This document shows, one piece after another, positions 1,003 to 34,925 of a stretch of 64,000 nt of DNA; the stretch's first letter is position 1, and each line of letters starts with the position of its first letter. This DNA comes from a virus. Its lineage: Duplodnaviria > Caudoviricetes. The stretch is taken from IMG/VR virus record IMGVR_UViG_3300025372_000010, positions 32,001 to 96,000 of that record; one strand, written 5' to 3'. The position numbers and the translations under genes were made by a program. The notes under the pieces were generated by a model. It made no database searches. It was not told the origin of the DNA and saw only the letters and a program-made list of their open reading frames with translations.

Positions 1003-1008
1003 AATGAT

Positions 1009-1368
1009 ATGACACTTCGATCAACGCTTAAGATGCCAAACTATGGCTGTACATTATATATACTATGTACAGATGAGTTTCTAAAAGAGTGCAACAAAGT
1101 GTTTAAGAAGTTTAAAAGCCCAACAAGATGGGTATCTGAGGCAGAGGGTACATTAATAACAAACGATATAGATGAGTACTATTTGATCTTAAATCAGTCC
1201 TACTTAACCTATAACACAATAACGCATGAAACCTTTCATGCAACATTAAAGATTAGTAAAGATAGAGATATCCATGATGAAGAAGCTCAAGCTTGGTTAC
1301 ATGGATATGTGAATGAGGCGGTCTTTAAGTTTTTATCTAAAAAGAAGTTTACTGTAAAACATGGCTAA
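1009..1368 (+). CDS. Small protein with HExxH (zincin-like) motif
   Basis: 119 aa; 'ITHETFHA' followed by a downstream 'DEEAQAW' glutamate. Confidence 0.55.
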   Translation: MTLRSTLKMPNYGCTLYILCTDEFLKECNKVFKKFKSPTRWVSEAEGTLITNDIDEYYLILNQSYLTYNTITHETFHATLKISKDRDIHDEEAQAWLHGYVNEAVFKFLSKKKFTVKHG

Positions 1369-9005: not shown

Positions 9006-9021
9006 TAACTATAAAAATACT

Positions 9022-13904: not shown

Positions 13905-13962
13905 ACCTAGTAAGTTTAGCTTTAAACTTTAAATATTTTTCGTTATATTATTAATGTACCCT

Positions 13963-16900: not shown

Positions 16901-17028
16901 ATAGTAATATAGTTCAGTTGATGATGGTTAATCAACAAGCTAGTAAGCAGTATGAACAACATCAAAAAAGTAGTAATGCTCCTAGCTTTAATCTTCAAGC
17001 AGAGCTTAATAAACTAGGTATAAAATAA
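13963..17028 (+). CDS. Large cargo/ejection protein
   Basis: About 1021 aa (alternative start 13954); Cys-free; helical N-half; located between cargo genes and the vRNAP block. Confidence 0.65.
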   Translation: MAQYIPYIQDQAPEPVLYQPDWGMIGTALQKKDYQYQQGINQLRQGYGSILNAPLSNSENIPVRDQYVKQAQESLKKISGADLSLPENVQAAQNIFEPFWNDPFIVKDANYTQWYQSQQQKLASWRDSQDPKVRSMYSPVMEQYLNQGLNKLQTAKRTPEGFSRIERREAIPFTNVQEWLQDRAKDQGLKIDWTDVSPDGAYLIDTTNGQKTQKKFSSWAEGMMGDNFNEQFKIEGRVRAENVENYIKSQPANAGLPPEQIRAKVADYVITNLKNGYEQRVGKIDSQISSIDNLLKSYPANISDPAQAQKAQQLLDERRQLASLKDSVSSEYGGIEDPNSPLYKQTIQSVLQDPTNYFGTLSKQSTINNWATARAEVESRTIKENSSFFKAQDIKEKYDNLNFQKQKEADLKDYRDKLLSIKGAGGLRGAGGTGAGGGGKMSFTLDNDGNVVPVFGPATEGEQLSTGARVKGLGSTDITTTPSAYDVFMNYQGALLGTAHDKTFNPESGAIRFLTNAGLSDDDVMQISSGLKRQLTDGENFSWNPKEVTALDKLAKSQGFSKYWKDSKVSNIQQGILNYAKDYVKQKHDNNIDFTDDDTKVLQNYLEAKQANDMFVANEDDRQNLIKNSILTDPKTYGKITVDRDGKKDLIQQSDVQKFFKDNGIKVIDKWSVSSDPEEKVSLKDLSRAFMQGKVKFSTAKLADMVEQRATIDGTTYAILGNVEGIKSRFGSSEDFSNLYMKANTTVVPHLKYFENKTARMGTVWGLNLDDYNKDPQGFQIVEEALLPSNQLNIYAQDKNGNQTVVDNDTRNAIKMLLGSRENIKKYLGNADYYTQGVNGNPTLSFNIKELSSSDKNNIGGVDLNKLNTDVYKIEISPEAKGPNLRNLPQNSGNYVYQKLLQGESMHSDDMLNSYGISYDIVPNNNTNPTGGSVTFKYNLRTNKLNPTTGQMEIATVPMQERKVFSFEDVTPDQVVGMIHSNIVQLMMVNQQASKQYEQHQKSSNAPSFNLQAELNKLGIK

Positions 17029-17046
17029 TACATATCCTACAAACTT

Positions 17047-20000
17047 ATGGATTCTCTTAACTTTTTAATGCCTGACAATATAAATACGGACAATCTTGTA
17101 CCTCAAGATAATCCGACAGGTAGTTTATTAGATATACTTCAAACTTCTGGCCCTGGTCCTTCACAGCCAATTACTTTTGATCCTATTAAAAGTTTTCAGT
17201 TTCCTTCTTCTCCAACTTCTGAAGCAGCCGCTGCACCATTATTTTTTGATGCTCAAAGAACTAATGTTGATAGATATACTAACTCAGCTTACTTTAAGCA
17301 GTTAGGTTTTAATCCTTTAGAAGGAAATGCTAATGAATACAAGTATGGCTCTATGCAAACATGGGGTGATACTATGGGTAATGCTTTAGGTGGAGCTTGG
17401 AAGTTAGGAGCTAATACATTTATACAAGGATGGGAAGGATGGGGTAATATGGCTAATGCATTGACCTCATGGGATAGTAGTAAGTTAGTAGGAAGTCCAG
17501 AACAATTATACCAAAGTAACCAAGAGCAGAATGCTATCATGAACAAGTATGCAATCTTTGCTACTCCTGAATCAGATGCTGGTGGTGTATTTAATCGTAA
17601 GTTTTTTGGTGATATGGTTCAGCAAACTGGATTTGCTCTTGGAACTATTGCTCAGTTTTTATCAGAAGAGCTTATAACATATGGTTTATCTACAGAGTTT
17701 TCATTAGCTAAACTTGGAATTAAAGCTCCATCTTGGTTAGGTAAAGTTGTTACTAAATCAGAGTTATTAGCTGATATGACTAAGCTGGGTGAAAATATCT
17801 ATAAGGATAGAACCTTTGCTGAGAAGTTTGTAGAGAATGCTAGAAAGTTTGTTCCTTTCTTAGAGACAGGAGAAGAGATGGCTAAGTATTCTAAAGCTGG
17901 TGCTGGTGCTGCTCAAATAGCAGCTATTGGCGTTGGTGGATTAAGAAGAACATTAGCTGAAGCTAATATGTCTTTTACAGAAGCTCGTATGGAAGCTGCT
18001 AACACTTATGGTGATCTTTACAATAAGTTATATGATGAAGAGGTTGATAAGACAGGAGAAGTACCATCTGGTGATAAGTTAGCTAGAATGAAAGAGATAG
18101 CAATGAAAGCATCTAGTGATAACTTCTTTGTTAACTCAGGAATCTTAATGCTATCTAATAGATTACAGTTTGATAATTTATTAGGCAAGTTTAGTTTTGG
18201 TAGAGAGATATTAGGAGAAGGTGGTGGGTTTGCAGAAGACATCTTAAAAGTTACTGGTAAGGTAGGAGAAAATGAAACAACTAAAGTGTACCAAAAAGGA
18301 TTGATGGGTACACCTGGATTATATGGTAAGATAGCAGAAGACTTTGGAAAAAAAGAAGCTGCTTGGCAAGTTGCTAAGAGCTTAGGAAAGCATGCATTCA
18401 AATGGGAAACTAGTGAGGGTCTTCAAGAGGTTTTCCAAGATTTAAGTAATCAGTCCTTACAAAACTACTACTATGATTTGTATCATGGTATAAAAGGAGC
18501 TGACTTTAGTCCTAGCTTAGAAAAAGCTTGGGCACAGGAGAATCAAGGTAACCAAGGGTTAAAGACTTTCTTAATGGGAGCTTTAACTGGAAGCTTGATA
18601 TCTCCTATTGACTTTGCTATAGGCAGAGCCAAAACTTATGGAATGTCAACAGCTGAACAAAGACAGACAAGAGAAGCTGATGTAAAAGATGCTGTTGAAA
18701 TGCTTAATGGTTTTTATGAGAATCCAAACCGTTATCTTAATGAGCATATTGCTAATGTAAAGTTACAAGATCATGTAGCTAAAACTATGGATGAAGCTAT
18801 TGCTAATAGAGATAAATATGTGTTTAATAACTTTAGAGATAGTGGATTTGCTAAGATGGTTTCAGCTGCTATAAAGACAGACATGTATGAGTCTGTTATG
18901 AGCACATTAAGAAACTACGGTGAGAGTATGACTGACCAAGACTTCAAAGAAGCTTTTGGTATGGAGAAGAATAAATATAATATAGATTCTATAAAAGGAT
19001 TCTTTGATAAGGTTGCAAGTAGTGTTGAAGAGTTTCATAAGAACTGGAAGACATTACGAGATAGATATGCTGACTCTGTTATACCAGAAATATATAAAGA
19101 TGGCACTCCTGAAAAGAAGATTAGTTTAGCTGCTAAAAGAGCATTAGATGATGCTATTGAAATACTAGCTACTAACTCTTATAAAGGACAGAATGCTATT
19201 GTCAGAGCTACTGATTTACAAACTCAAATGGCAGCAACTCCAACTATTGGAGGATCATTAGAGAATGCATTTAGAATATTAGGTCATGCAGGTGAGACAG
19301 CTCAAGAAGCATACTTATTAGATCAAGAGATAACATCTTTAGAAAGTGCTGATAAGATTGATAGAGAAACTCGTAAGCTTATTACAGCTAAGAAAAAGCA
19401 ATTAGCTGCTCTTACTGATTGGTTAAAGAATCAAGATGCTCTAGAAAAGATGGGTATTGAAGAGAAACGTAGATTCAATAAAGCTAGAAAGTCTTTTAGA
19501 GACTATGTTAATTCTAAGAATGAGCAAGCTAAGCTAGATGTATCTATAAAGAATGATGACTTTGAGGATATCTATAAAAACTTCTTAGACTATATTCAAC
19601 TTAATAGTGATGCTAAACAGTATGTAGATGCATACAATGTTCTAGCTAATCCAACTAAGTTTATCTTAATGCATGAGCGTATGCTTGATGCTATATTAAA
19701 AACTGAAGAGACTTATAAGAAAGAACATGAGGCTGAGATTAAAGGTGAAAAACCTGAAGCTGAAGAAAAAACTGGTAGCTTAGCTGATTTAATGGAGAAA
19801 GGATTAACAGTTGATGAAGCTAATCCAGAGAAAGTAGAGAAAGAAGAAGCTGAGAAAAAGAATGTAGATAAGCAAGCTTTAGAGACTGAGTTACACGATG
19901 CATATAGAACATATGCACAAGAAGCTTATGAGCAAGGTAATACTCCAGCTAAACCATCTGAATGGATTCGTTTTGGTGAAACTGCTAGAAAGATATTAAC

Positions 20001-22593
20001 TAAATATGGTGCAACTAAAGAAGATATCTATCATAATATAAATAATGTAACTGAAGATAATTATAATGATATATCTTTTAGTTATGGAGAACCTATTGCT
20101 GCAGCTCAACCTGCTCCTTTAGAAACTACTGAAGATCAAACTGCAGGTGGTACTAATATTGAGCAAGTAGATCCTACAGCAGCTGAAACTCCTGCTGAGC
20201 AAGCTGTCACTACAGAATTACCTGATAATGTGATTGCTGGTATGGATACTGGTGCTCAACAAAATCAAGGAGCTAGTCAGTCAGTAGTTATTGGTAAACA
20301 AACAATCAATGTAGGTGACAGAATCACTGGTAATCCTGGTGGTGATTTAACTGTTACAGGTATTAATTCTAAAGGTGATGTTACATTAGCTAATGATGAA
20401 ACTCAAGTTACACTTCCTAAAGATGACTTAGCTCAACTAATGGCTAATGGATATAGTCAGATAGTTAAAGCTGCAACAAAGACAACAGGCAAAGCTACTC
20501 CTAAAAAGACTACAGCTCCTGTAGTTAAGAAACCTACTTTTGAAAATGGTGAGATAAACAATGTAGAGCAGACTCGTGCTGCTATGCTTAATCAAGCTAA
20601 TAAGAAAGGTGGTGTTGATGATCAGTTAGAAAAAGAAACTCCTGGTGTAGTAGAAGGTAAGAAAGTAATTAATGGTGCTACTAAGATTAACAATCGCACT
20701 GAAGACTTTACAGCTACTACAGATAATAAAGGTAAAACTATTCGTCAGATTACTGGTGTAAATAGTAACTACCCAATGATTATGGCTACTAGTCGTATTA
20801 ATATGGGTACTGGTATTACATTAAGAGTAGATACTAGCTTAGCTAACTATGATGAGTATGAGTATATTAATACTAATAATGTAACTAAGCGTTCTAAAGA
20901 AGATTTCTTTGAGAATGGTAAAGTAAAACAGTCAGCTGTAGAATCTTTTCCAATTGCTATCTATACTAACTATAATGGTCAAGAAGTAAAATTAGGTTAC
21001 TTACCTACTGTTGAATGGGTAAATGCAAAGTATCCTAATGGATCTACGGTGAATGTCGTAGATAAAACTTATGATAAAGATGGTAATGAACAAGATAATC
21101 TTGGACCTAACTTAGCTCAGTTGAGAAAGATTAGACAAGATTTGATGAATGGGTTTAATACTGCAGGTAAGACTGAATGGACAGCTATAGTAGATAATAA
21201 ATCTGATGGTAATCTTAGAACTATATCTGGTGTTAATAAAGTAGCAGATGTAGTGAGCCCAGGTACACAGATTGGTATTATAAAAAATGGTGTTGTTTAT
21301 ACAGGTAAGAATGTAGAAGCTACAGGTCAGATTATACTTCCAAGTGAAGTATCTACTACTATAGAGAACAAGAATACAGAAGGCTGGCCAGTTGTATTGA
21401 TTAATACTCCTACTGGTAAAAGATTAGCAAGCTGGGTTAGTGTTCCAACATTGAATAAAGAACATCAAGATCTTATTTTAAATGCTTGGAGTGCGTTCCA
21501 TTTATTAAACAATAATGCTAAAGCTAACGAGCCACATGATACTAAGTCTAAAGCTTATGAAATAGCTAGTGCAATATATGAAGCATATGGGGCTAAGCTT
21601 GCAGTAGATGAACAACCTAACTTTAAGCTTTTACAAGACTATGTTAATGACTACATCACTTTTACAGGTGGTAAGAATGATGAGAAGAATGGTTATAAAA
21701 AGTACGATCCATTGAAGCCAGGATCATCTTTATTGACTATATTGCCAAATGGTACTTTGATTACATGGGTAGTTCAAACTGGTGTTGAAGCTAACGATAA
21801 AGTGTTAATGACTGATCCGTCCAGATTGACTGATGAGAATAAGAACAAGTTCTATAACTTAGCAGATCAAGTGCACTATAATATTAAGTTTAGTGATAAG
21901 AATAATAATGGTATCAACTCTGATAGTAAGATGAGATTTTTAAGTATGGTGGGTGATTCATTAATTAAGTCTGAGCCTATGACATATAATGAGCATGTAT
22001 CTAATCTATTAGAGACAAACATAGAGCCAGGTATTCCTTTAGATCCTAAGCAACCAGATGGAGAAAGAGTTTATTTCTCTAACCCAGTATTGAATTTTAG
22101 CTTTACAGAGCCTACAGAAACTAAAGTTACCACTCAAAAAGAAAATGCTGCTGTTCCAGCTGAAACTACTCTTGTTACTACTAATATAGAATCTAAGAAA
22201 GCTGATATAGAAAGAAGAAGACAAGAGCATATTGACTTAATTGAGCATAATGAAAATGCAGATGGTAGTGAAGAATCACAAGCATATGACACATCTTGGA
22301 GTAAAAAAAATGAATATGAATACTTTTCTGGTAAAACAAAGAAAGAAGTAGTAAATAAAATAAATGCTAAGTATGATGCTGAACTAGCTGCTTTAGAAGG
22401 TGGTAAAACCAAAACTGTAAAGAGCTTAGCTGATGAATTATTAAATATGGACTTTGGTGAAGGATTAACTGACTTTGGTAACTTTGATCAAGGCGTGATT
22501 GATGGAGATCTTCCAGGAGATAAGAAATCAATAGCAACTAAAGTGAATGATATAGTAAACGATAAAGAAATAGATAAAAACTGTAACGGATAA
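17047..22593 (+). CDS. Giant ejection protein preceding virion RNAP
   Basis: 1848 aa; N-terminal Gly/Ala-rich amphipathic segments with 'EARMEA' and 'EGLQE' motifs; single Cys at the C-terminus. Confidence 0.7.
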   Translation: MDSLNFLMPDNINTDNLVPQDNPTGSLLDILQTSGPGPSQPITFDPIKSFQFPSSPTSEAAAAPLFFDAQRTNVDRYTNSAYFKQLGFNPLEGNANEYKYGSMQTWGDTMGNALGGAWKLGANTFIQGWEGWGNMANALTSWDSSKLVGSPEQLYQSNQEQNAIMNKYAIFATPESDAGGVFNRKFFGDMVQQTGFALGTIAQFLSEELITYGLSTEFSLAKLGIKAPSWLGKVVTKSELLADMTKLGENIYKDRTFAEKFVENARKFVPFLETGEEMAKYSKAGAGAAQIAAIGVGGLRRTLAEANMSFTEARMEAANTYGDLYNKLYDEEVDKTGEVPSGDKLARMKEIAMKASSDNFFVNSGILMLSNRLQFDNLLGKFSFGREILGEGGGFAEDILKVTGKVGENETTKVYQKGLMGTPGLYGKIAEDFGKKEAAWQVAKSLGKHAFKWETSEGLQEVFQDLSNQSLQNYYYDLYHGIKGADFSPSLEKAWAQENQGNQGLKTFLMGALTGSLISPIDFAIGRAKTYGMSTAEQRQTREADVKDAVEMLNGFYENPNRYLNEHIANVKLQDHVAKTMDEAIANRDKYVFNNFRDSGFAKMVSAAIKTDMYESVMSTLRNYGESMTDQDFKEAFGMEKNKYNIDSIKGFFDKVASSVEEFHKNWKTLRDRYADSVIPEIYKDGTPEKKISLAAKRALDDAIEILATNSYKGQNAIVRATDLQTQMAATPTIGGSLENAFRILGHAGETAQEAYLLDQEITSLESADKIDRETRKLITAKKKQLAALTDWLKNQDALEKMGIEEKRRFNKARKSFRDYVNSKNEQAKLDVSIKNDDFEDIYKNFLDYIQLNSDAKQYVDAYNVLANPTKFILMHERMLDAILKTEETYKKEHEAEIKGEKPEAEEKTGSLADLMEKGLTVDEANPEKVEKEEAEKKNVDKQALETELHDAYRTYAQEAYEQGNTPAKPSEWIRFGETARKILTKYGATKEDIYHNINNVTEDNYNDISFSYGEPIAAAQPAPLETTEDQTAGGTNIEQVDPTAAETPAEQAVTTELPDNVIAGMDTGAQQNQGASQSVVIGKQTINVGDRITGNPGGDLTVTGINSKGDVTLANDETQVTLPKDDLAQLMANGYSQIVKAATKTTGKATPKKTTAPVVKKPTFENGEINNVEQTRAAMLNQANKKGGVDDQLEKETPGVVEGKKVINGATKINNRTEDFTATTDNKGKTIRQITGVNSNYPMIMATSRINMGTGITLRVDTSLANYDEYEYINTNNVTKRSKEDFFENGKVKQSAVESFPIAIYTNYNGQEVKLGYLPTVEWVNAKYPNGSTVNVVDKTYDKDGNEQDNLGPNLAQLRKIRQDLMNGFNTAGKTEWTAIVDNKSDGNLRTISGVNKVADVVSPGTQIGIIKNGVVYTGKNVEATGQIILPSEVSTTIENKNTEGWPVVLINTPTGKRLASWVSVPTLNKEHQDLILNAWSAFHLLNNNAKANEPHDTKSKAYEIASAIYEAYGAKLAVDEQPNFKLLQDYVNDYITFTGGKNDEKNGYKKYDPLKPGSSLLTILPNGTLITWVVQTGVEANDKVLMTDPSRLTDENKNKFYNLADQVHYNIKFSDKNNNGINSDSKMRFLSMVGDSLIKSEPMTYNEHVSNLLETNIEPGIPLDPKQPDGERVYFSNPVLNFSFTEPTETKVTTQKENAAVPAETTLVTTNIESKKADIERRRQEHIDLIEHNENADGSEESQAYDTSWSKKNEYEYFSGKTKKEVVNKINAKYDAELAALEGGKTKTVKSLADELLNMDFGEGLTDFGNFDQGVIDGDLPGDKKSIATKVNDIVNDKEIDKNCNG

Positions 22594-22596
22594 CAT

Positions 22597-25500
22597 ATGT
22601 CTTGTATATACACTATAAATGGTAAGCAGTATTCTGACTCTGAGGTTAAACAAGTCTTCAGTAGTATCCTAGCTGTTCCTGGTAATGAAAACTTATCGAA
22701 TGAGGAACTAGTAGCTAAGATTACTGAGCTTAGTAAAGATAGATTTGTTGATGTAAATCTATTTAGCCCATATCAAGAATCAGCTTACACTAACATCATC
22801 TTTTCTGAGGTTGTTGACCAACTTGGTGTTTTAAAACCTAAGATGGAGATTAAACAATCTGCAGGTAAAGTATTTGGTGATACTTATAGTCGTTTCAAGA
22901 ATGAAGCTGCTAAGTTTAATGCTATCTCTGAAAAGATAACATCAGAAGAAGCTTACAATCAGTTTAAGCAAGTTGAGGGTGTAGCTGCAAAGTTTCCTGA
23001 GATTGCTGCTTTAAACTATAATCAGTTCAAGAGTATGGTTGATCAGTTCAATCATATTGTAAATGAAGAGAACTGGAAGAAGTTTACTCAACTAGCTGAG
23101 CAAAAGCTTAGACAGCTTGGGTTAACTATTAAAGATGGTAATATTGTAGAAAAGAAGTTTGATGCTACAGAGATTGCTAAGAGATTAGAAGAGGATCAGA
23201 ATGATGAGAATGAACCAGAGTATGAAGATTCTGAAAGAGAAATCAATGAGTCATACGAAGATGGTCGTGCATTTAGATTATCTCCTAAAGATACTGCTAG
23301 CTATCGTGTAAAGTTATTCTTATCTACTATTCCTAACTACGAGAGAAACATCTTTGGTAAGAAAGACTTTGTGTCTATGGACCAAGTGTTTGAAGACTTG
23401 TTGCAAACAGCTGCAACTCTTCCTGTAGTAAACTATAAAACCTTTACAGAAGCTTTATTATCTAAAGCTGAGGGTAAACCTTATTTACATAATGTAGTAG
23501 GTAAGTTAGATAGATTACAAAAAGACGGTAACGTAAAGCTTCGTAATGAAATCATTACAGTATTTAATAAAGCCTTTACTGACCATGTGCTTGTTTTATG
23601 GAACCCTTCTGAAGGTGGTGTTAAAGTTAAAGTGATTAGCTCTAACCGCAATAGTATAATCCGCCAAATCAAGCAAGACTGGATTGAAGCTCAGAAAAGA
23701 TCTGCTATTATCTCTACAGATACTATTGGTGATCTAGTAATAAATAAAGAGAAGGTTAAAGAGTTATATGATTCTTTAAAAGAAGCTAATAAGTCTAAAG
23801 ATATCACTGATAAGAAAGCTTGGGTAGCTGAGTTCTTTAAATCAGTAGGTATTGACTTTGATGCAAAGATGATTGATGCATTAGTAAAGAGTGCTAATAA
23901 CGGTTTCTTCAAGTATGTACGTAGTGCTAACTTTGCTGCTATGTTCAGACCTAATGGTGTGTTTGATAACATCATGAAGACTTATTCTAAAGAGGGTGAT
24001 GGTAAATCAGATAACCGCTATGAAGATTCTAATAATGCTATGATCCATGAGCGTGCATTTGACTATCTAGCTCAGATCTTCTTTGACTTTAATGGTAATA
24101 AATATCAGACTGGTACTTTCCAGAATGGTGAGAATAAAACTATCTACTCATACATCCAACCTAGTTATTTAGAGACAGTTAAGAAAAAGCTTAATAATGG
24201 TGACGGTTATTTAAAACGTCTATCAGAAGCTTCTTTCTCTAAATCATCTGAGGTAGTTGCTCAGTTATTAAATAACCTTACAGAGAATAGTAATAACTTT
24301 GTATATCGTATTAGATATGCAGATAGCTTAAAGAATGACACTGCAGAGAAAGCAGGTATAGTTCGTAAGCGTATGAGCCGTAAAGAAATGTTATTTGATT
24401 CATTAGTTAAGTATATGAACTCTGGTAAAAATACAGGGTTGTATAACATGTTTACATTGTCTGATAAGACAGTTACGCCTGTTATAGAAATGACTAAAAC
24501 TAAGCTTGATCCAACATTTGATATCTTATTACGTCCTTCTAAGAATACAACTGTAAGAACTAGCTTTGATTTCAAAGATGGTTTTGCAGATAAATTATAC
24601 ACCCTAGCTAAGTCTGAAATAGATCGTATGGTTGACTATGCTAATAATGCTAATAAAGCAGGATTAGGTATAAACAACTTTGATAAGTCTAGTCAGATCT
24701 TTTATTTATTCCCAGCTCTTAATAACAAAGAGGATGCTGATCTTAAATCTATTGTAGATTCTATACAAGCGGGTAATCAGCCATCTTTAGCAGATGAGAA
24801 CTATATCAAGAAAGTATTAGTGGATGTGTTTAAAAATGATGTAATGAAGTCATTTAGAACTCTTACTGATATAGGATTGATTAAGAAGTCTGAAGCTTTA
24901 GATGAGAATGATAAGAAGACTATCTTATTAAACTATGATCAATTAGATAAAGACTATCTAGCTCAATATTCTAATCTAACAGATAAGCAAAAAGGAGTTA
25001 TGATAATATCTGAATTTAAGTATAATAACTTAAAAGCTCAGATTAATAGTTTACAAGTGTTAGGTGCAGATCCTGCATTATTTTACAAGACTAAGATTGG
25101 AAAAGCTAAAGAAGCTCTTACTACTTCTGATGTTAACTCTATAGTAAAAACTACTATGGATGAATTCAGTAAGCGTGCTGCAATGTTTATTGCACCAGGA
25201 GCTCAAGGTACATTTGAGTGGACTGACTTAAATGGTCGTCCTGTTGATAGAACAAACTATGATATAGTTACTATCAAAGATGTGGTTAAGAATGTAGGTG
25301 GTTTTGAGAAAGTTAATATTGCAGATGCTCAGGAGTTAGTAACTCTACAAGAGCATATTGATAGATTAATGTCTGAAGGTCGTATTGACTTAGAAGACTG
25401 GCAGTCTATTACTGATAAAATAGAAAAGAATAAAGGTAAGTTTTATGAGCTTAGCGATAAAGAAAAGCAGATTGCTTTACAACCAGCTAAGCCTGTATAT

Positions 25501-28500
25501 AGTTCTAATACTTTTGTAGATGGATTTAGTAGAATAGACTATATTAAATCTTCTACATACCCAATGATCCCTGAAGTAATTCAAGGAACTGAGTTAGATA
25601 AAGTTAGAGCTTGGATGGAGAATAATAATATTAGCTCAGCACCTTTTGAGTCTGCTAAAAAGACTGGTATTCCTGCAGCTCCATTAGAGTTGTTTGATGC
25701 TAATGATAACTTTGTAGAGCCTACTAAAGAAAGATTAGCTGAAGTGAGACAAACTCTTAACAGAGAAGGTCTTCGTACACAGCAAGAGATCCCAGCTCAA
25801 AAAGATGAGATCAACGTAGTTTCTCAGATGGACCGTCAATTATTTGAGGGTTTACTTGGTATTAAAGGATTTATGTTTGATGCTCATAGTTACACTGGCT
25901 CTGAACTTAAAAAGCTATCAGAAGCTATTCGTATTGCTTTCTTCTATAAGAACCAGCAGGTTTTGGCTGATAGATTAAATATAAAGATCACTGATAACAA
26001 TGTAGTATTTAAAGATCAAAAAGCTTTAGCTGATTTATTAAAAGAAGAAGCTTTAGATAGAGATTTCTCTGCTAATGATATTAAAGCCATCCAAACTAAT
26101 GAGGATGGTAATCTTGTTATTCCTATCTACTTAATGGCTAAGGGTAAGAGATTTGAAGGATTAGTAACAAGTATTTTCTCTAAGTTAGTAAAGCTTAAAG
26201 TGCCTGGAACTAGTTTAGTACAGGTGTCTGGTGTTGGTACCAAAGTAAAAGAGTCTGAGCTTACTGATAAAGTAAAGAATCAAATCATCTATACAGATGC
26301 TTATGATGCTTCTAAAGGATTACAATACATTCGTAAAGAAGCTACAACAGTTGATGATAAAGGTAATGTAAAGAAAGGTAAGGCAGTTCAACCTGCACAA
26401 GTATTTGTTTCTCAATATCTTAAAGACAAAGAAGGAAACTTAATAGACTTAACTAAGTATGTTAAGAAAGATGCTCAAGGTAGAATGATATTAGATAGTA
26501 ATAAGATCGATAAAGACTTATTACAGTTTATTGGTGCACGTATTCCTAACCAAGGTCATTCATCAATGTTACCTATAGAAGTGGCAGGGTTCTTACCTAG
26601 CTTTATGGAAAACACTGTAGTAGTGCCGGACGGTGTCACATCACAAATGGGATCTGACTTTGACGTAGATAAGTTATACTCTTATATTAGTTCTATAGAG
26701 AATGTTACTGATGATAAGATCTCTAGTCAGAAGTTTGATAGCTCAATCTATAAGAATGACTACGAATCTTTAATGAGTGCTTCAGAAGCTGAGTTATTAC
26801 AAATGTACAAAGAAATACATTGGTCAGTGTTAACTCATCCGGATGTATTTGATAAGATCACTCGATCTACAGAGTTTCCAGATATTAGTAAAGAGATTGA
26901 AGTATTTGAGAAAGCAGGTTTATTAGAAGATAAGGTGTCTGCATTGCCTATGGACTTTGAAGCTCAGATTAAAACCTTTTTAGATAACCGTAGTGGTAAA
27001 TCTGGTACAGGTATATTTGCTCAGATGATTTCATTCTTAGCTGAGCACCAAGATAAAGATATCAAGTTAAAGTCTTTCTTAGATAACAATGATAATCCTA
27101 TACAAGAGTCAGTTAAGTTCTTAAAAGACAACGGTGAAATATTAAAGCTATTTAGATTTACGGCTGAGGGTAGAAGTGAGACTGAAAATGGTGAGCGTTC
27201 TAAGACTGATAATACATCTATATTCCTTTCTGAATCAGTGGATAATGCTAAGAATAAGAACTTAGATAAGTTCAACTTAACTGTTGAAGCTATGAACGCA
27301 GTGCGTGCTGTGATAGGATTAAGTTCAGAAACTGGAGAGATTGCTGATATTAGATATGTGACTAGATTGATGCCACAACCTATTATCAAGAACTACTTAA
27401 ATGAAATAGAGTTATCTCGAGATAGCTTTAGCGATAAGTACACTAACAAGTTTGATATTGCTACAAAGATGATTAACACTTATAATAGTTATTTATCTGA
27501 TGTAGCTGAAATAGATATAGATCAAAGATTATTCTCTCCTGCTACATTACTAAAAGCTTTAATAGATGGGAAAGACTTCGGTGAGAAGTTAATCAATGAT
27601 GCAAAGAATGGTGTATTATTAAATAGTCAGCAACAAGCTCAGCTTAATGAGTATATAAATAATCAAGTATCTATCTTAAAACTTTATACTCAATTAGATA
27701 ATATTGGTTGGGCAATGGGTAAGTTGATGACAGGTACCAATGTTACAACAGCAGGTATTGGGTCAACTTTATTTGCTGTAGCAGATAAGTTAAGACAAGT
27801 AAAAACTGTTGCTCTTAATACTGTATTCCAAAACACTGAACAACTATTAGGTGATATTGCTTATGATGGTACGATTATAAATCCTACTAGTCAAGCAGGA
27901 CATGCTATGAATGTAGCTCTATCTTTTGGTAGAGATGTATTATCTAAGCTTGCACCTATTCACTTTGGTGCATCGTTTGACCAATTGAGAGACAAAGTAG
28001 TTAGAGAAAGATTTAAAGATTCTAATATATCCAACTGGGGTAAGACTAAGTATATGGAGTTAAGTGAAGACTTAATGAAATCTGCATATGCTTACTTATT
28101 AACTAACCCTGAGTTAGGAATGGTTCAAGATACTCAAAATGATCGCACACGTTTACTTTATGGAGCTAACGGTGAAAGATCTTTAGGTGAGCGTATTATA
28201 GCTCTTAAAGAACAGCTTAAAGATACTAACTACTTTATAAATAGATTACAAGTTACAGCTCCTATAAATAAAGCTGCAGATCCTTATTTAGTTAAATATA
28301 GATCTCCATTCAGTCAAGATATAGATGAGCAGGCTAACAATAAAGGATTCTTAGAGTTAATATTAAGCGGTGATAAAAACCAGATTGATATTGCTCGTGA
28401 TCTAGTTACTTATGCATATCTTACTGGATATGATCAAGGATCTTCTTCTTATTTGAAGTTTATCCCTGTAGAGTACTTAATGTTAAACCAGAAGTTTACT

Positions 28501-30474
28501 AACGGTTTAAAAGACTTTGCTTCTACTTTTGATGACATGGGTACCTTCTATAAGCAGTTTATTCAGAACAATCCTGATAGAGCTCTTAATATGGGTAAGA
28601 AGTTATTTGAGGATGTCTTCTTTAAAAAGATAGACAGTGATGATGTAATCCATATAGCAGATGATAAATTAGCGGATGCTTTATTAGTACAAATGCCTAA
28701 AGAGGAAGGAAACGGATATAAGTATGCTGATTACATTAAGGGTATAAAGTATGTAGGTGATCAAAGAAGAGTATATTTATTTGAAAGAGTTGTAGGCAGT
28801 AGAGAAGATGACAGTAGATCCTATAGACGTATACCTACATTAGGTAACGGAACTATATCTGAGTATGTATATGATTCTGAAGATGTTAAGTCTATCTTCT
28901 TTAATAACCTTACTCCTACTCAAAAGATGGATACTCTATCTACTAATCCAGAGAATCCATTCAGAAAGATTAAGATATACAATGCTCAATACTTTGACTT
29001 GAGATACTTAATCCCAATGGGAGATACCGCTACACAGTTTATTGGTCTAGACATAAGCAATGCTAGTAAGACTACTAAGACTGCATTAGAAGCTTATAAA
29101 GATAAATCTAATACAGGTGAGTATGCCCCAACAGATAAAGTTATTATCTCTGGTAATACATTATTACAAACTGTAAAACCTAAGGAAGGAACTACTAAGT
29201 TAGATGTGTCTGATATTAATTCAGCTTATTCTATATTAGAGTCAGTATTTAATGATCACTATGCTCCAATGATAGATAAAGCTATTAAAGCAGGTGCTGA
29301 CTTTATGGTAGGTAGTTTAACAGGTATGGAAGAAGTTGCTAAGAAGTATTTAAGAAACGAAGGCTTAGCAGAAGATACTGATGATAAAGGAGTTACAACA
29401 TTTAAGAACCCTAAGAGCAGTGAAAAGATAGAAGCTCAACCTACAGAGATTAATGATTCTGATGTACCAACTATTAGTTTATTTGGTATAGGCGGTGAGC
29501 AAACTGCAAGTGAAGAAGAGTCTGCTGGTGCTTTTGGTTTTGAGTTTGCTAATGATGATGTGGCACCACAAGAAGCTACTCATATGATTACTGAAGGAGT
29601 AGAGAAAGCAGGACCTGTACAAACAGACGCTGATATAGTTAACAATTATACTAATGATCCTAGTAAACCTAGTACACTTAAGTCAGTGTTAAGTAAAGTT
29701 GGTACAAATACAGATAATGAGTTCTATAAGACACTAGTATCCGTATTTAGAAAAGCAGGCTTCCCTGATATAAATGTTAGTTTCTCTGAGGCTATTAATA
29801 ATCCTGGAGAGTATAATTCAATAAATGGTTCTATAATTATTAATCCAGCTCTTGCTATATCAGACAATACTAGATTAAACCGTCAGCAAAATTTAGAGTC
29901 TACTATTATACACGAAGCACTTCATGCATACATTTCAGATATCCTATCTAAGATTAGCTCTAATGATAAGAGTCTCACTGAAGCTCAAAGAGTATTTGGA
30001 ACTGCTTTGAAACAATTGTATAAAACTACTGTAGAAAAAGTAATGGATGACCCGCAGCATTCTGATAGATTAGTTGCTACTAATAATATGATCAAAGAAA
30101 AAGGTTATATTAGTACTGAAGATAAAAGCATGTACTATGGCTTAACTTCTGTGGATGAGTTTGCTAGTATGTTATTTACTAACCCAACCTTCCAGCAGTT
30201 TATGAATACTACAATAGTACAGGAGACAGGAAAGCTTTCTGTAATAGATAGATTCAAAGCTTTATTAGCTAAATTACTTAAGAGCTTAGCTAAGAGCTTA
30301 AATATTGTGACAGAAGGATCTGCTTTAGAACAAGGAGTGAATGACTTATTTAATCTTATTAGTGTAAGTCAAGAGAAAGCTGGTGGTGAAACATCTGCAA
30401 AAAATCAGTTATCTTTGTTCAGCATGTCTACAAGACAGATGGAAAACTATACCTTAGAAAATCAATGTAAATAA
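22597..30474 (+). CDS. Virion-packaged single-subunit double-psi-beta-barrel RNA polymerase (crAss-like vRNAP) with C-terminal zincin-like domain
   Basis: 2625 aa; 'GARIPNQGHSSM' (about 26533) and catalytic 'GSDFDVDK' (DFDVD 26656-26670); 'IIHEALHA...EF' zincin motif at 29911. Confidence 0.9.
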   Translation: MSCIYTINGKQYSDSEVKQVFSSILAVPGNENLSNEELVAKITELSKDRFVDVNLFSPYQESAYTNIIFSEVVDQLGVLKPKMEIKQSAGKVFGDTYSRFKNEAAKFNAISEKITSEEAYNQFKQVEGVAAKFPEIAALNYNQFKSMVDQFNHIVNEENWKKFTQLAEQKLRQLGLTIKDGNIVEKKFDATEIAKRLEEDQNDENEPEYEDSEREINESYEDGRAFRLSPKDTASYRVKLFLSTIPNYERNIFGKKDFVSMDQVFEDLLQTAATLPVVNYKTFTEALLSKAEGKPYLHNVVGKLDRLQKDGNVKLRNEIITVFNKAFTDHVLVLWNPSEGGVKVKVISSNRNSIIRQIKQDWIEAQKRSAIISTDTIGDLVINKEKVKELYDSLKEANKSKDITDKKAWVAEFFKSVGIDFDAKMIDALVKSANNGFFKYVRSANFAAMFRPNGVFDNIMKTYSKEGDGKSDNRYEDSNNAMIHERAFDYLAQIFFDFNGNKYQTGTFQNGENKTIYSYIQPSYLETVKKKLNNGDGYLKRLSEASFSKSSEVVAQLLNNLTENSNNFVYRIRYADSLKNDTAEKAGIVRKRMSRKEMLFDSLVKYMNSGKNTGLYNMFTLSDKTVTPVIEMTKTKLDPTFDILLRPSKNTTVRTSFDFKDGFADKLYTLAKSEIDRMVDYANNANKAGLGINNFDKSSQIFYLFPALNNKEDADLKSIVDSIQAGNQPSLADENYIKKVLVDVFKNDVMKSFRTLTDIGLIKKSEALDENDKKTILLNYDQLDKDYLAQYSNLTDKQKGVMIISEFKYNNLKAQINSLQVLGADPALFYKTKIGKAKEALTTSDVNSIVKTTMDEFSKRAAMFIAPGAQGTFEWTDLNGRPVDRTNYDIVTIKDVVKNVGGFEKVNIADAQELVTLQEHIDRLMSEGRIDLEDWQSITDKIEKNKGKFYELSDKEKQIALQPAKPVYSSNTFVDGFSRIDYIKSSTYPMIPEVIQGTELDKVRAWMENNNISSAPFESAKKTGIPAAPLELFDANDNFVEPTKERLAEVRQTLNREGLRTQQEIPAQKDEINVVSQMDRQLFEGLLGIKGFMFDAHSYTGSELKKLSEAIRIAFFYKNQQVLADRLNIKITDNNVVFKDQKALADLLKEEALDRDFSANDIKAIQTNEDGNLVIPIYLMAKGKRFEGLVTSIFSKLVKLKVPGTSLVQVSGVGTKVKESELTDKVKNQIIYTDAYDASKGLQYIRKEATTVDDKGNVKKGKAVQPAQVFVSQYLKDKEGNLIDLTKYVKKDAQGRMILDSNKIDKDLLQFIGARIPNQGHSSMLPIEVAGFLPSFMENTVVVPDGVTSQMGSDFDVDKLYSYISSIENVTDDKISSQKFDSSIYKNDYESLMSASEAELLQMYKEIHWSVLTHPDVFDKITRSTEFPDISKEIEVFEKAGLLEDKVSALPMDFEAQIKTFLDNRSGKSGTGIFAQMISFLAEHQDKDIKLKSFLDNNDNPIQESVKFLKDNGEILKLFRFTAEGRSETENGERSKTDNTSIFLSESVDNAKNKNLDKFNLTVEAMNAVRAVIGLSSETGEIADIRYVTRLMPQPIIKNYLNEIELSRDSFSDKYTNKFDIATKMINTYNSYLSDVAEIDIDQRLFSPATLLKALIDGKDFGEKLINDAKNGVLLNSQQQAQLNEYINNQVSILKLYTQLDNIGWAMGKLMTGTNVTTAGIGSTLFAVADKLRQVKTVALNTVFQNTEQLLGDIAYDGTIINPTSQAGHAMNVALSFGRDVLSKLAPIHFGASFDQLRDKVVRERFKDSNISNWGKTKYMELSEDLMKSAYAYLLTNPELGMVQDTQNDRTRLLYGANGERSLGERIIALKEQLKDTNYFINRLQVTAPINKAADPYLVKYRSPFSQDIDEQANNKGFLELILSGDKNQIDIARDLVTYAYLTGYDQGSSSYLKFIPVEYLMLNQKFTNGLKDFASTFDDMGTFYKQFIQNNPDRALNMGKKLFEDVFFKKIDSDDVIHIADDKLADALLVQMPKEEGNGYKYADYIKGIKYVGDQRRVYLFERVVGSREDDSRSYRRIPTLGNGTISEYVYDSEDVKSIFFNNLTPTQKMDTLSTNPENPFRKIKIYNAQYFDLRYLIPMGDTATQFIGLDISNASKTTKTALEAYKDKSNTGEYAPTDKVIISGNTLLQTVKPKEGTTKLDVSDINSAYSILESVFNDHYAPMIDKAIKAGADFMVGSLTGMEEVAKKYLRNEGLAEDTDDKGVTTFKNPKSSEKIEAQPTEINDSDVPTISLFGIGGEQTASEEESAGAFGFEFANDDVAPQEATHMITEGVEKAGPVQTDADIVNNYTNDPSKPSTLKSVLSKVGTNTDNEFYKTLVSVFRKAGFPDINVSFSEAINNPGEYNSINGSIIINPALAISDNTRLNRQQNLESTIIHEALHAYISDILSKISSNDKSLTEAQRVFGTALKQLYKTTVEKVMDDPQHSDRLVATNNMIKEKGYISTEDKSMYYGLTSVDEFASMLFTNPTFQQFMNTTIVQETGKLSVIDRFKALLAKLLKSLAKSLNIVTEGSALEQGVNDLFNLISVSQEKAGGETSAKNQLSLFSMSTRQMENYTLENQCK

Positions 30475-30476
30475 TT

Positions 30477-33400
30477 ATGGCTTGTTACGTTAAAAAGAAT
30501 GACCTTGGTTTAATCACAGAAGTAAGACTTCCTGATGGAAAAACTATGTCTAAAGCTTACTATGACATCTTACAACATGTTCAAGAAGGTATTCCTTCTG
30601 AGCACATTATGAATACTTTAGCTTCTTTACGTGAGTATGAAGGTAAATATATCTCTGATACAAAGAGTAATGATCAACGAGCTCTTGGATTATACATGCA
30701 TTTATATGACCAGTCTTTTAGACAATGGTATGGTGATTGGACAACTGAGCCAAAGATTAATAATGATGCTACTATTACTAGAGCAGATGGAGAGACTCGT
30801 TCTATCTATGACTTTGGTAAATATAAGAATAATGCAAGCGAGACTTTATATTCCGCTAGAACTGCAGCAACAGGTAGATTACTTAAACAAGTAGATTTAA
30901 CTGTTAAGGAGTTAAGAGACCGTATTAAGCTAGCTATTGATGCCCGTGAGAAATCTAAGCTTAACGCTGACTACACTAAAGATCAGAAGATCGAGAGAGA
31001 AAGATACTATAACAAGATTATAAAAGTACTTAACCAACAAGTTGAGACTCTTATAAAGAATAATAATGTTGACTATGTGTTAGCTCAGGGATTGTCTGAT
31101 ATGAAAGTCATTAAGAACATATTATCAGGTCCTATAGTCAGTCTAACAGAGATCAGATTTATGGATGACATCGTTCAAGCTTGGACAAATATTGAAACTG
31201 TACTAGGTATACAGTCAATTGATGATCTACCAGAAGATAACGAAGAGCAAAAGAATAGAAAGGAAAGAGCTACACAAATATTAAATAATGCTGATTTTGC
31301 TAAAAAAAGTATTGCTAACTTAGCTAAGAAGCAAATTGTTGAAGCTTATAACAACTCTATGCCTGAGGGTCAAGAGATCACAGTAAAAGACTTAAATGCA
31401 TTTAAAGATGTATCTATGTGGAAGTCTTTAGCTAGAGATATCACAACTGTAGATAATAAGTCTGTAGCTTATTTAGCTAAGATTATCAATGAAGCTAATC
31501 TAAAGATAACTAAAGAGCACAACAGAAACTATGAGTCTATAGATAAGGCATATGATGATATCAAGAATCACCCAGAGATTGTTAAGAATGGATTTAACAT
31601 ATTCATCAAAGAACAAAAGGGAGCTCTTGGTACAAGTACTTTAGGATTGACTAATAGATTCTCTCAGGTGTTTTATGATACTATGAGAAATCAAGGAGCC
31701 ATCTTAAATGCTAAAATTGAGGCTGCCGGGGAAGATAAAGAAGCAGTAAAAGCTGCTTACAAAACTTATAATGATTGGGTGGCTAAGAATACTGTGTTAT
31801 TTAACTCAGCTCCTTTCTTAAACACTGAAGCTTATACAGATGCACAAAGAATCGAAGTAGTAAATGATCTTAAGAAACAAGGATTCACTGAAGATGAGAT
31901 TGGCGATATGATTCGTGAAGCAGGTAAGAGATACCAAGATTATAATGAGTATGCTGAAAAGTTCAGAACTACTTTATATCTAGATATTATGTCTGGTGAC
32001 TTGGAAGTACCAGAAGGAGAAAATGAGGATGAGTTTGTTAACAAGCGTGTTGAAGAATGGAAAAAGATTAACGATCCTATTGCATACATAGAACACATTA
32101 ACAACTTGAATCAAGGATTGTTTTCTACATTCTCTGCTTTTAAAGGCGGACGTTATGCTGTTAAGTTTCCTCAGAAGACAGTTGACGGTAAAGATTCTAA
32201 CTATTATGATGACAACTTTACTAAGATTGCAGCTGATAAGAAGCTATACAACTTCTATTTATTCTTTAGAAACTTTGTAGAAGAACAACTTAGTTATCTT
32301 CCTCAGGAAGAAATCGATAAGCTTGGCTCTAACTTCTTACCAGTTATTATGGAAAGAATGGCTAAAGAATATGGTTTTAGTAGCTTAAAAGAAGTGAGTA
32401 AGAATATGGGTGATTGGTTCTTTAAACAGTTAACTAGTGTTGACTATAAAGAAAATAAGCGAATAGATCCTATTACAGAAAAAGTAAGAAGAAGCTTTAC
32501 TACTAAATTCATCAATGAAGATGTAGACACTGAAGAAAGATCTAAAGATATGGTCTTGATGATGAAGCTATTTAGTGATATGGCTTTGATATATAAACAC
32601 AAGATCCAAATTCAGGATCAGGTAGATAGTATTAATGATATTATACAAAGTGCAGATGCAACTATTGTACAAAACAATCTTGAAAAGCGTGAAGAAAAAG
32701 GTAAAGCTCCTGCTAATCTACAGAACATGGTGGGAAGTGCGGTGCTTAGATCTTTTTATCAAGTGGCACCAGAACCTCAGGGGTTAATTCAAAACAGAAG
32801 ATTCTATAATGCATTAGAGCTATTAAGCTTTGGTACGGTTAAATCTAAAGAGTATAAACAAGCTCTTGTTTTACAACAAAGTATACAAGATCTATCTAAA
32901 AAGTTAGAGTCTGACACTTTGAAAGAAGCAGACAGACTTAAGTTAGAAGAGCAGGTTCGTAACTTAAAGAAAGAATACTATGAGCTTGGAGGTCGTAACC
33001 TAAGTATGAGCTCTGTATTGGATGGTATGAATAAACTTACTCGTCAAAAAGGTATTGGTCTTAACCCTTTTGCAGCTATTAGAAACTTAGCGGTGGGTGG
33101 ATTGAATAACTTCATCCATGCTTATGGAGGAGAAGACTATTCTACTAAAGACTTTTACACTGCTACAGGTATTATAAAAGACAGTGCAGCTAAATATCTT
33201 ACATGGGGTAATAGTAACTCTATTAATGCTATGAAGATATTGAAGTTCAATCTAGATTCTAAGATTGTTGATGGAGAGGATGAGATCTTTAAAGGAAGTG
33301 TAAGTGCTATTAATAAAGCTAGCACATGGGAAACTATTAAGAAATATGTACCTAGTCCTTTTGGATTGATGAGATCTACTGACTATTTGTTTAAATCTCA

Positions 33401-34262
33401 AACATCTGTATCTATGATGTTAGCTCAGAAAGTTGAGACTAGTAAAGGTACGTTTAACTTATTTGAAGTTATGGATGAGAATCTAAACTTCAACTCAGCT
33501 AAGTATGGTGAGTGGGATGTAGAAAAGAATGGTGGTTTAACTTTTGATGAGTTATACGATAAGTTCTCAGCTAAAGTGGGACAAGTAGCTAGAAAGCTAC
33601 ATGGTTTTGCCGGTGGTGGTTTATCATTAGCAGCTAAAGATTCTATGTATTGGAGAATGCTAATGGTGTTTAGAACATGGTTACCAGAGACTATTGCTAA
33701 CCGTTTTGAAAAGAATAGATATGACCCTATCTTAGAACGCAATACAGAGGGTTATTACAGGACTTTTTGGAATGTTCTTAAAGAAGATCCAGCTGGTATA
33801 TTTAAAGCGATGTATCAAGCTGCAGTGAGCAAACAAGTGGGTAATCTATCTAAAGAGGAAGTAGCTAACTTAAGAAAGATGATGATGGAGCTTACTACGA
33901 TTATGGGATTATTCTCTATGTACTTAGCATTATCTGCTAGTGTAGGGGATGATGATAAGACTAAATGGAAGAGATTAGCTCTTAACCAGCTTAACTTATT
34001 AGCCCGAGATATGACTTACTATCTAGATCCATACTCTGCTAAATCTCTATTAGAGAATACAGTACCTGCAATGACTACTGTTACACAATCATTAGATGCT
34101 CTTAAAGCTATAGGTAACTATGCGGTGGGAACTGAAAATGCACAAGGTGATCCACTATATGATGGACAAAGAACTATATTAAAGATTACAAAAGCTCTAC
34201 CTTATGTCAACAACGTAAATAGAGTGATCTATTACTCTGGTAGAATGGGTAATGTAAGATAA
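30477..34262 (+). CDS. Giant ejection protein following vRNAP
   Basis: 1261 aa; helical; C-terminal 'FRTWLP...EGYYRT' segment and hydrophobic stretch; starts MAC. Confidence 0.7.
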   Translation: MACYVKKNDLGLITEVRLPDGKTMSKAYYDILQHVQEGIPSEHIMNTLASLREYEGKYISDTKSNDQRALGLYMHLYDQSFRQWYGDWTTEPKINNDATITRADGETRSIYDFGKYKNNASETLYSARTAATGRLLKQVDLTVKELRDRIKLAIDAREKSKLNADYTKDQKIERERYYNKIIKVLNQQVETLIKNNNVDYVLAQGLSDMKVIKNILSGPIVSLTEIRFMDDIVQAWTNIETVLGIQSIDDLPEDNEEQKNRKERATQILNNADFAKKSIANLAKKQIVEAYNNSMPEGQEITVKDLNAFKDVSMWKSLARDITTVDNKSVAYLAKIINEANLKITKEHNRNYESIDKAYDDIKNHPEIVKNGFNIFIKEQKGALGTSTLGLTNRFSQVFYDTMRNQGAILNAKIEAAGEDKEAVKAAYKTYNDWVAKNTVLFNSAPFLNTEAYTDAQRIEVVNDLKKQGFTEDEIGDMIREAGKRYQDYNEYAEKFRTTLYLDIMSGDLEVPEGENEDEFVNKRVEEWKKINDPIAYIEHINNLNQGLFSTFSAFKGGRYAVKFPQKTVDGKDSNYYDDNFTKIAADKKLYNFYLFFRNFVEEQLSYLPQEEIDKLGSNFLPVIMERMAKEYGFSSLKEVSKNMGDWFFKQLTSVDYKENKRIDPITEKVRRSFTTKFINEDVDTEERSKDMVLMMKLFSDMALIYKHKIQIQDQVDSINDIIQSADATIVQNNLEKREEKGKAPANLQNMVGSAVLRSFYQVAPEPQGLIQNRRFYNALELLSFGTVKSKEYKQALVLQQSIQDLSKKLESDTLKEADRLKLEEQVRNLKKEYYELGGRNLSMSSVLDGMNKLTRQKGIGLNPFAAIRNLAVGGLNNFIHAYGGEDYSTKDFYTATGIIKDSAAKYLTWGNSNSINAMKILKFNLDSKIVDGEDEIFKGSVSAINKASTWETIKKYVPSPFGLMRSTDYLFKSQTSVSMMLAQKVETSKGTFNLFEVMDENLNFNSAKYGEWDVEKNGGLTFDELYDKFSAKVGQVARKLHGFAGGGLSLAAKDSMYWRMLMVFRTWLPETIANRFEKNRYDPILERNTEGYYRTFWNVLKEDPAGIFKAMYQAAVSKQVGNLSKEEVANLRKMMMELTTIMGLFSMYLALSASVGDDDKTKWKRLALNQLNLLARDMTYYLDPYSAKSLLENTVPAMTTVTQSLDALKAIGNYAVGTENAQGDPLYDGQRTILKITKALPYVNNVNRVIYYSGRMGNVR

Positions 34263-34484: not shown

Positions 34485-34925
34485 TTATTTTTCCATAGTA
34501 AAAGGATGCTTGCCTAAGTAGCAATCTTGGTCCCAATCCATGTGCTTCTTAAATCCATTTATGTAGCTTTGAATATTACTCGCACCTACGGGATTATGGC
34601 TGTGCACACAACAGCTATTTATTTTTTGCTTATGATTGACAGCGTATTCAACTAAAAACTTAGCACAGTCAAGGCCAGTTTTTTCTTTGAAGCTGTCATA
34701 GTCTGGATGCTGATAACCATGCATAGCAACTTGATTATAATAATCGTTGATATGCTCATCTGCTAAATCATGGTCAAAGCTAACCAAGTCAGGTATACCA
34801 TTTTTTGTTATCCAAGCAGCAAACTCATTATAGTTTCTTACTACTTGCCAGGGATGGTAACCTGGTATTGTGTCTGTGGGAGTTCTGCAGTCATCTAAGT
34901 ATAGACAATTCTTAAGCTTTTTCAT
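34485..34925 (-). CDS. Cyclic-phosphate-processing receiver-domain protein
   Basis: 'LYLDD.R.P...W.VVRNY.EF...VSFDHDL...KTGLDCAKFL...VHSHNPVG' signature. Confidence 0.75.
   Translation of the reverse strand: MKKLKNCLYLDDCRTPTDTIPGYHPWQVVRNYNEFAAWITKNGIPDLVSFDHDLADEHINDYYNQVAMHGYQHPDYDSFKEKTGLDCAKFLVEYAVNHKQKINSCCVHSHNPVGASNIQSYINGFKKHMDWDQDCYLGKHPFTMEK

Follow-up and report, generated by a model that had tools for sequence, protein, structure and literature searches.

In the crAss-like phages phi14:2 and crAss001, the proteins of a 'cargo' block, among them a giant virion RNA polymerase (vRNAP), have been shown to be packed in the virion and delivered (crAss001 atlas, PMC10172136; phi14:2 preprint). 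The preprint adds that the counterparts of three of these proteins, gp67, gp66 and gp65, occur as one fused polyprotein in certain phages; its authors guess that this is cleaved, and are silent on Cys. The crAss001 atlas concludes that cargo must partly unfold for exit, and describes disulfides between tail hub and ring proteins in the virion, but leaves the cysteines (Cys) of the cargo unmentioned (PMC10172136). Two further systems bear on the matter. The Schitoviridae ejection operon (N4 gp50–52, DEV gp71–73) suppresses Cys, a trait attributed to envelope passage (PMC11445570), and in the pre-ejectosome of the cyanopodophage A4 cryo-electron microscopy has revealed a disulfide between Cys1715 of gp27 and Cys5 of gp26 (PMC12002296). 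Here we describe a crAss-like locus in the viral record IMGVR_UViG_3300025372_000010, of which a stretch of 64,000 nucleotides (nt) was analyzed (record positions 32,001–96,000, 'the window'). Three consecutive genes of the window, A, V and B, encode very large proteins whose only Cys stand at facing ends. Related loci follow the same rule so closely that the three proteins seem likely to be linked, end to end, by disulfides. A literature search found no description of a terminal-Cys rule in crAss-like phages; ejection proteins free of Cys and a terminal disulfide of the A4 type were known already. The three genes, with lengths in amino acids (aa), and their Cys codons are these:

17047–22593, + strand: gene A, RNA polymerase (RNAP)-associated cargo protein, 1848 aa, single Cys at residue 1846
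22582–22584, + strand: TGT codon of A Cys1846 (C-end KNCNG, then stop), with two residues after it
22597–30474, + strand: gene V, the vRNAP, 2625 aa, Cys only at residues 3 and 2624
22603–22605, + strand: TGT codon of V Cys3 (N-end MSC)
30466–30468, + strand: TGT codon of V Cys2624 (C-end NQCK, then stop), with one residue after it
30477–34262, + strand: gene B, RNAP-associated cargo protein, 1261 aa, single Cys at residue 3
30483–30485, + strand: TGT codon of B Cys3 (N-end MAC)

Judged from its sequence, V is a virion RNA polymerase homologous to phi14:2 gp66. It matches chain A of PDB 6VR4, which is gp66, in a phmmer search (E=1.6e-20), finds phi14:2 g066, FpV4 and crAss002 by tblastn, and carries the catalytic motif of two-barrel RNAPs, DFDVD, at residues 1354–1358 (window 26656–26670, + strand). 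The phi14:2 and crAss001 blocks (gp67-gp66-gp65 and gp47-gp50-gp49) have a homologous vRNAP with DFDxD, the same four-Cys pattern, and the same gene order downstream of ring, muzzle-position and cargo genes. The similarity is nonetheless distant, 22–28% identity and over the core only, and there is a difference in architecture: window V itself carries an HExxH zincin-like motif in its C-terminal part (residues 2439–2443, window 29911–29925, + strand; invariant in alignment A3), whereas the phi14:2 preprint assigns a zincin-like domain to gp65, the counterpart of B. By position and size, A is the counterpart of phi14:2 gp67 and crAss001 gp47, and B that of phi14:2 gp65 and crAss001 gp49; homologues of both flank V in related loci. 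PHROGs and Pfam searches assigned no family to A or B, and Pfam returned no significant family for any of the three proteins. By homology, all three would travel inside the virion and be passed into the host. The last 40–70 residues of A and of V resemble hydrophilic linkers. The flexible-looking tail of V also contains QLSLF, which is like a beta-clamp-binding motif (window 30406–30420), some 20 residues before the C-end Cys.

The original prediction, made from the DNA letters alone, held that the seven proteins encoded in 5958–34262—A, V, B and four putative cargo proteins 5′ of A—contain only four Cys, all at facing termini. A computed count reproduces every coordinate and finds no additional internal Cys when the first of the seven genes is started at ATG 5958. 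The mechanical call of open reading frames (ORFs) begins that gene at GTG 5895 instead, which would add one Cys; ATG 5958 is the plausible start because it comes directly after the upstream stop, whereas GTG 5895 overlaps the upstream gene. Four Cys in 9,396 aa is a frequency of 0.043%, far below the 1.24% (125 in 10,110 aa) of the window's other ORFs. At that background rate some 116 Cys would be expected in the seven-gene block, and the Poisson probability of four or fewer is about 3e-44. Nor are the four scattered: they lie 1–3 residues off the facing ends, and uniform placement of four Cys in A, V and B would bring all of them to within three residues of the four facing ends with a probability of about 2e-11. 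The gaps between the genes are 3 nt at the A–V junction and 2 nt at V–B. The first junction (22591–22599) reads TAA CAT ATG, so that V starts in frame with A, one sense codon lying between; the second reads TAA TT ATG, and B starts out of frame with V.

The same arrangement recurs across related loci. An alignment-based scan of IMG/VR yielded 79 of these (a query with a single vRNAP protein found none in viral_contigs), and their ORFs were called and then labelled by BLAST against sets of A, V and B sequences. The block has 87 internal boundaries in these loci. Both facing ends have Cys at 70 of them and a single end at 5, whereas 12 have none; with duplicates and large-gap boundaries removed, the pair is present in 60 of 67. 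The boundary at which the block meets the cargo gene before it served as a control. There the pair occurs once in 59, and the single case (L010), when inspected, turned out to be a genuine A–V boundary. At its outer C-end, which faces no partner in the block, B has Cys in 1 of 69 cases. Placement is extreme throughout: 0–2 residues follow the C-end Cys in 61 of the 70 paired boundaries, and the N-end Cys stands behind 2–4 residues, initiator Met included, in 69. Elsewhere in these proteins Cys is avoided, with 119 internal Cys in 429,635 residues (0.028%), and of 51 complete modules, 25 have a total of precisely two Cys per boundary, and 40 have an even total. In L038 and L066 a gene has been inserted between the partners, and the partner still bears its Cys.

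Where genes are fused, the pair that belongs to the lost boundary is absent. BLAST mapping of longer V homologues showed natural V–B fusions to keep the N-end Cys and to have none at the C-end or the junction, whereas natural A–V fusions have the C-end Cys only; the first pair is missing from the A–V fusions and the second from the V–B fusions. Nine ORFs of 4,800–6,650 residues are fully fused, and eight of them have no Cys, the ninth having one. An alignment across the junction between split forms and their fused relatives was not obtained, the flanks being too divergent. Eight loci of one clade (L010, L011, L016, L020, L021, L029, L031 and L053) have a further ORF of about 260 aa just downstream of the V–B fusion, and its product has a Cys-rich C-terminus that ends in CxxC or CxC (e.g. 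NCTTCGS, SPTCTTC).

Seven tight boundaries lack the pair. One, in L050, is mislabelled. Another, in L030, is probably a frameshift: ORFs of 2013 and 2873 aa overlap there by 38 nt (11607–11644) in different frames, neither end has Cys, and the break looks like a frameshift, programmed or due to assembly error, rather than a true split. Three belong to L055 and L059, one to L028 and one to the fragmented locus L052; two other fragmented loci, L054 and L057, have wide-gap boundaries only. B begins MQHC in L055 and L059, and the adjacent upstream genes have no C-end Cys. Both loci have a conserved internal Cys, at residue 268 of a 665-aa protein in L055 and at residue 5022 of a fused 5419-aa protein in L059, which could serve as the partner of B and make a branch instead of a linear link.

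Homologues at large tell a similar story. In a collection of 5.8 billion proteins, searches retrieved 96 V, 47 A and 33 B homologues. Full-length V homologues not fused to A or B (P0001–P0064, 30–100% identity) nearly all have Cys at position 3 or 4 and again among the last three residues, and internal Cys are few or absent across their 2,600–4,400 aa. A homologues, down to 21–23% identity, have one Cys, within the last 1–15 residues, and all full-length B homologues begin MxC. The terminal Cys are thus kept in homologues down to about 21–25% identity. In the clade of the window the N-end flanks are specific to the junction, MxCxYxIN in V and MACxxKR in B; the C-end Cys stands in Lys-rich surroundings. 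Many V homologues in the range P0016–P0063 carry extra Pfam-annotated domains, mostly helicase families of the AAA_30/AAA_19 type (PF13604, PF13245), and some have PF08719, PF10263 or PF18760. P0016–P0042 have about 550–600 extra residues between the end of the V similarity and the conserved NQCK tail; these inserts are mostly Cys-free, and the terminal Cys is retained beyond them.

Cultured phages conform as well. The three proteins of phi14:2, 5,398 residues in all, contain four Cys and no more: gp67 C1797, which is the last residue, gp66 C3 and C2179, and gp65 C3. In crAss001 the terminal Cys are gp47 C2339 of 2341, gp50 C5 and C2404, and gp49 C5, and the pattern is intact with gene A (gp47) on the opposite strand from the other two. 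FpV4 has an A–V fusion, gp32 (C4286 of 4287), followed by gp33 (C3). In crAss002, gp32 ends in VCS, and gp33 has the canonical N-end motif MSC in frame at annotated residues 33–35, so that its annotated start (L084 11803–11907) is probably 32 codons too early. cr8_1 has gp92 C2337 of 2338 and gp93 C5. The V–B fusions of these gut Intestiviridae are richer in Cys, with 15 in total in cr8_1 gp93 (L085) and 7 in crAss002 gp33 (L084); internal avoidance is relaxed in them and the terminal pair with gp92 or gp32 retained. About 1.3 kb beyond the block, in the downstream direction, cr8_1 further has a gene with a thioredoxin annotation.

If facing Cys act together, they should come and go together, and in the related loci they do. 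The N-end Cys of V covaries with the C-end Cys of the upstream protein ([[42,1],[2,22]], p=2e-14), and the C-end Cys of V with the N-end Cys of the downstream protein ([[12,0],[2,46]], p=7e-11), whereas the two Cys of V itself are not significantly associated (p=0.25). This combination fits head-to-tail pairing; it disfavors both a vRNAP closed on itself and one site made of all four Cys. On trees of the RNAP core (FastTree, IQ-TREE quick) each terminal-Cys trait changes state 5–8 times. Phylogenetically independent contrasts are 4:0 at each junction, with 1–2 ties at A–V, and 8:0 when the junctions are pooled (sign test, 0.008). The Cys pattern is conserved, and it is strictly coupled to gene fission and fusion. 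Comparative evidence of this kind shows the facing Cys to be selected as pairs, each standing at the site of what in fused relatives is a peptide bond. The interpretation in the original prediction is thereby supported in part: its head-to-tail pairing is strongly supported, its bond and its threading are likely and less certain, respectively, and the features on which it leaned—co-occurrence of Cys at facing ends, conservation in homologues, loss upon fusion—have all held up, as has its background claim that N4-type vRNAPs lack Cys, which is in the literature (PMC11445570).

The likeness to Schitoviridae is one of composition. Their giant virion RNAPs and partner ejection proteins are nearly Cys-free, as here (PMC11445570), but they have no terminal Cys at all, the vRNAP is one polypeptide, and the N4 enzyme has a global structure fundamentally distinct from that of phi14:2 gp66 (PMC13434306). 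A4 is the closest precedent. In the record of the Anabaena phage A-4L, gp27 (1717 aa) and gp26 (1114 aa) are consecutive genes with one Cys each, 3 residues from the C-end of gp27 and 5 from the N-end of gp26, lone terminal Cys like those of the window. The pair is kept in Pf-WMP3, Pf-WMP4, CHP58 and TR020, whose proteins are about 25% identical to those of A4. When A-4L gp25–gp29, gp31, gp33 and gp19 were compared by BLASTP with a set of 144 A, V and B sequences, nothing matched at E≤0.01. Since the proteins have no BLAST similarity, A4 appears to be a second podophage family with a like solution, and one in which the bond has been seen; the resemblance would be one of mechanism, not of family. 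There are differences, too. A4 has one such junction, not two, and no RNA polymerase, the bond lies in an ordered pentameric core, and the A4 paper does not connect it to gene fission or fusion (PMC12002296). Split inteins offer a looser parallel, in that separately encoded halves are rejoined after translation by way of a junction Cys, although the product there is a peptide bond and here would be a reversible disulfide. A split intein as such was considered and rejected: Cys 1–3 residues from the ends leave no room for an intein, and A, V and B contain no significant Pfam family.

What might the pairs do? A, V and B look to be the split form of one giant ejected polyprotein that is found across Crassvirales. 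They exclude Cys almost entirely, as do other proteins that pass from a phage through its tail and the cell envelope, save for the one on the flexible tail of each facing end. We consider it probable, at roughly 60%, that the facing Cys are disulfide-linked, making A-V-B one covalent unit in the virion. The released virion would then have two inter-protein disulfides, A C1846 to V C3 and V C2624 to B C3, which would form after the particle has left the reducing cytoplasm. With stubs of only 0–4 residues beyond the bonds, the covalent unit would have a topology near that of the fused protein, each junction being almost as slim as a peptide bond. Such a tether might keep the three pieces together, in order and in fixed stoichiometry, through storage and ejection, and thiol reductases of the host cytoplasm would open it, giving the bonds a role in ejection and in release by reduction. 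Whether the unit is also threaded out sequentially as one strand is the least certain step, and we would bet somewhat against it.

A fuller version of this scheme is more speculative still, and we offer it as a tentative thought. A disulfide at the extreme termini may restore a threadable chain, and so allow repeated fission of a polyprotein of ~5,000–6,600 residues to be tolerated. A would start the chain, with the vRNAP in the middle and B at the end, and all three would exit the capsid together in one strand. The host thioredoxin system, by reducing the bonds, would then release, and perhaps activate, the polymerase. Redox-gated delivery would thus take the place of a peptide bond, and would have arisen at least twice, in Crassvirales and in Saffermanviridae.

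Several considerations weigh against the disulfide-linked unit. The cytoplasm in which these phages assemble is reducing and the habitats of gut crassviruses are anoxic, so that oxidation may be incomplete in nature. If the cleavage of the fused polyprotein guessed at by the phi14:2 authors takes place before packaging, fusion and disulfide are not equivalent. Only eight independent contrasts carry the phylogenetic case, and a single junction alone gives p=0.125. The rule has exceptions: V of L028 has an N-end Cys with no partner at adjacent ends, B of L055 and L059 has one with no facing partner, unless the internal Cys serves, and the fragmented loci L052, L054 and L057 depart from it as well. 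Neither the crAss001 atlas (PMC10172136) nor the phi14:2 preprint mentions terminal-Cys bonds, and the A4 bond staples a folded, symmetric core, not a thread (PMC12002296). A complex prediction of V residues 2330–2625 (alignment A3) with B residues 1–420 scored 0.00, which is no answer, and speaks neither for nor against binding.

The A4 comparison furnishes the main rival on function, since a folded-core staple fits the sequence data equally well. Here the disulfides would hold together a folded internal core in the capsid, resembling a pre-ejectosome, and stabilize the docking of each tail in the next N-terminal domain, with no pulling of a single strand. That is how the A4 bond works, where the C-terminal helix of gp27 is inserted in a cleft of gp26 and locked by Cys1715–Cys5 within the pentameric core (PMC12002296), and the junction-specific flanks of V and B suggest specific docking here, too. 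Reconstructions of crAss001, however, have no clear density for most of the cargo (PMC10172136), the tails of A and V look flexible, and a plain interface staple does not need its Cys at the extreme ends, where nearly all of them are. We regard the staple as unlikely on balance, while taking it seriously. The thiols might also do something other than bond to one another, for covariation tells us that they act jointly but not in what manner. A bridging metal such as Zn, at each junction or shared by two junctions or by all four termini, or some other thiol link, strikes us as improbable, although the original prediction named a shared metal site as an option: each junction offers two Cys only, with no conserved His, Asp or further Cys nearby, pairs are gained and lost junction by junction, which makes a single four-Cys site unnecessary, and the sole solved analogue, A4, has a disulfide. 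Slightly more improbable is that the Cys are conserved contacts of a non-covalent head-to-tail docking motif. The reducing compartment of assembly speaks for it, as does the fact that no bond has so far been observed in a crassvirus. But the flanking residues vary freely while Cys is nearly invariant in proteins that otherwise exclude it, the retention of this one residue for packing is hard to explain in a lineage that otherwise eliminates it, and the A4 analogue is bonded.

Two other explanations fare worse. The thiols could be paired differently, with the vRNAP closing on itself and A bonding to B, or each Cys serving alone, for example as an anchor to portal, tail or lipid. That there are four thiols is all that recommends this, and it seems very improbable, given that each Cys of V covaries with its facing neighbor and not with the other, and that in many natural proteins just one of the two is present; on the covariation, closure of the vRNAP within one molecule is rejected. 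Or the Cys could be a by-product at the level of nucleotides, of a stop/start or translational-coupling sequence that happens to encode it, an idea made attractive by the very tight junctions of the window and by TGT being one step from the stop codon TGA. Yet both Cys codons are in use, TGT 54–60 times and TGC 10–16 times, the distance of Cys from the end varies, other tight operon junctions have no Cys, as the controls show, and the pair persists when partners are on opposite strands, as in crAss001, or have inserted genes between them. Contradicted by codon use, distance, controls and non-adjacent partners alike, a nucleotide-level artefact is rejected, and we leave it only a negligible chance; it is the amino acid that is under selection. 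The disulfide-linked A-V-B unit remains the reading we prefer.

The surroundings of the three genes are those of a late operon of the crAss-like type. On the + strand of the window the order is ring gene, 119-aa gene, muzzle-position gene and four cargo genes, and then A, V and B:

115–1002, + strand: ring protein (Pfam CrAss_Ring_1), 6 Cys
within 115–5956, + strand: proteins of 119 aa (3 Cys) and 1531 aa (15 Cys), the latter in the muzzle position
5958–9005, + strand: putative cargo gene, 1015 aa, zero Cys
8977–10596, + strand: putative cargo gene, 539 aa, zero Cys
10605–13904, + strand: putative cargo gene, 1099 aa, zero Cys
13954–17028, + strand: putative cargo gene, 1024 aa, zero Cys

The virion proteins at 115–5956 have a normal Cys content, and the counts for ring and muzzle bear out the earlier remark that these neighbors are rich in Cys. 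The four cargo proteins have Cys avoidance in common with A, V and B; without terminal Cys they would stand outside the proposed chain. The first of them (5958–9005) contains a histidine phosphatase domain at residues 781–924 (Pfam His_Phos_1, E=4e-24). Downstream of B, on the − strand, are genes for a protein with a cREC_REC domain (34485–34925; E=4e-21) and for one resembling spore photoproduct lyase (36874–37725; E=1e-9). No phage thioredoxin or thiol oxidase was found among the ten genes downstream of B.

In practical terms the Cys rule is an aid to annotation. It marks true start codons, probably among them that of the MSC in crAss002 gp33, separates real gene splits from frameshift artefacts, such as that of L030, and identifies giant ORFs that belong to the ejected block. 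In biological terms, a conserved covalent tether would supply a concrete mechanism for the storage, ordering and ejection of the ~5 MDa of cargo protein that a crassvirus contains, and it would offer a route by which very large genes may split without loss of function.

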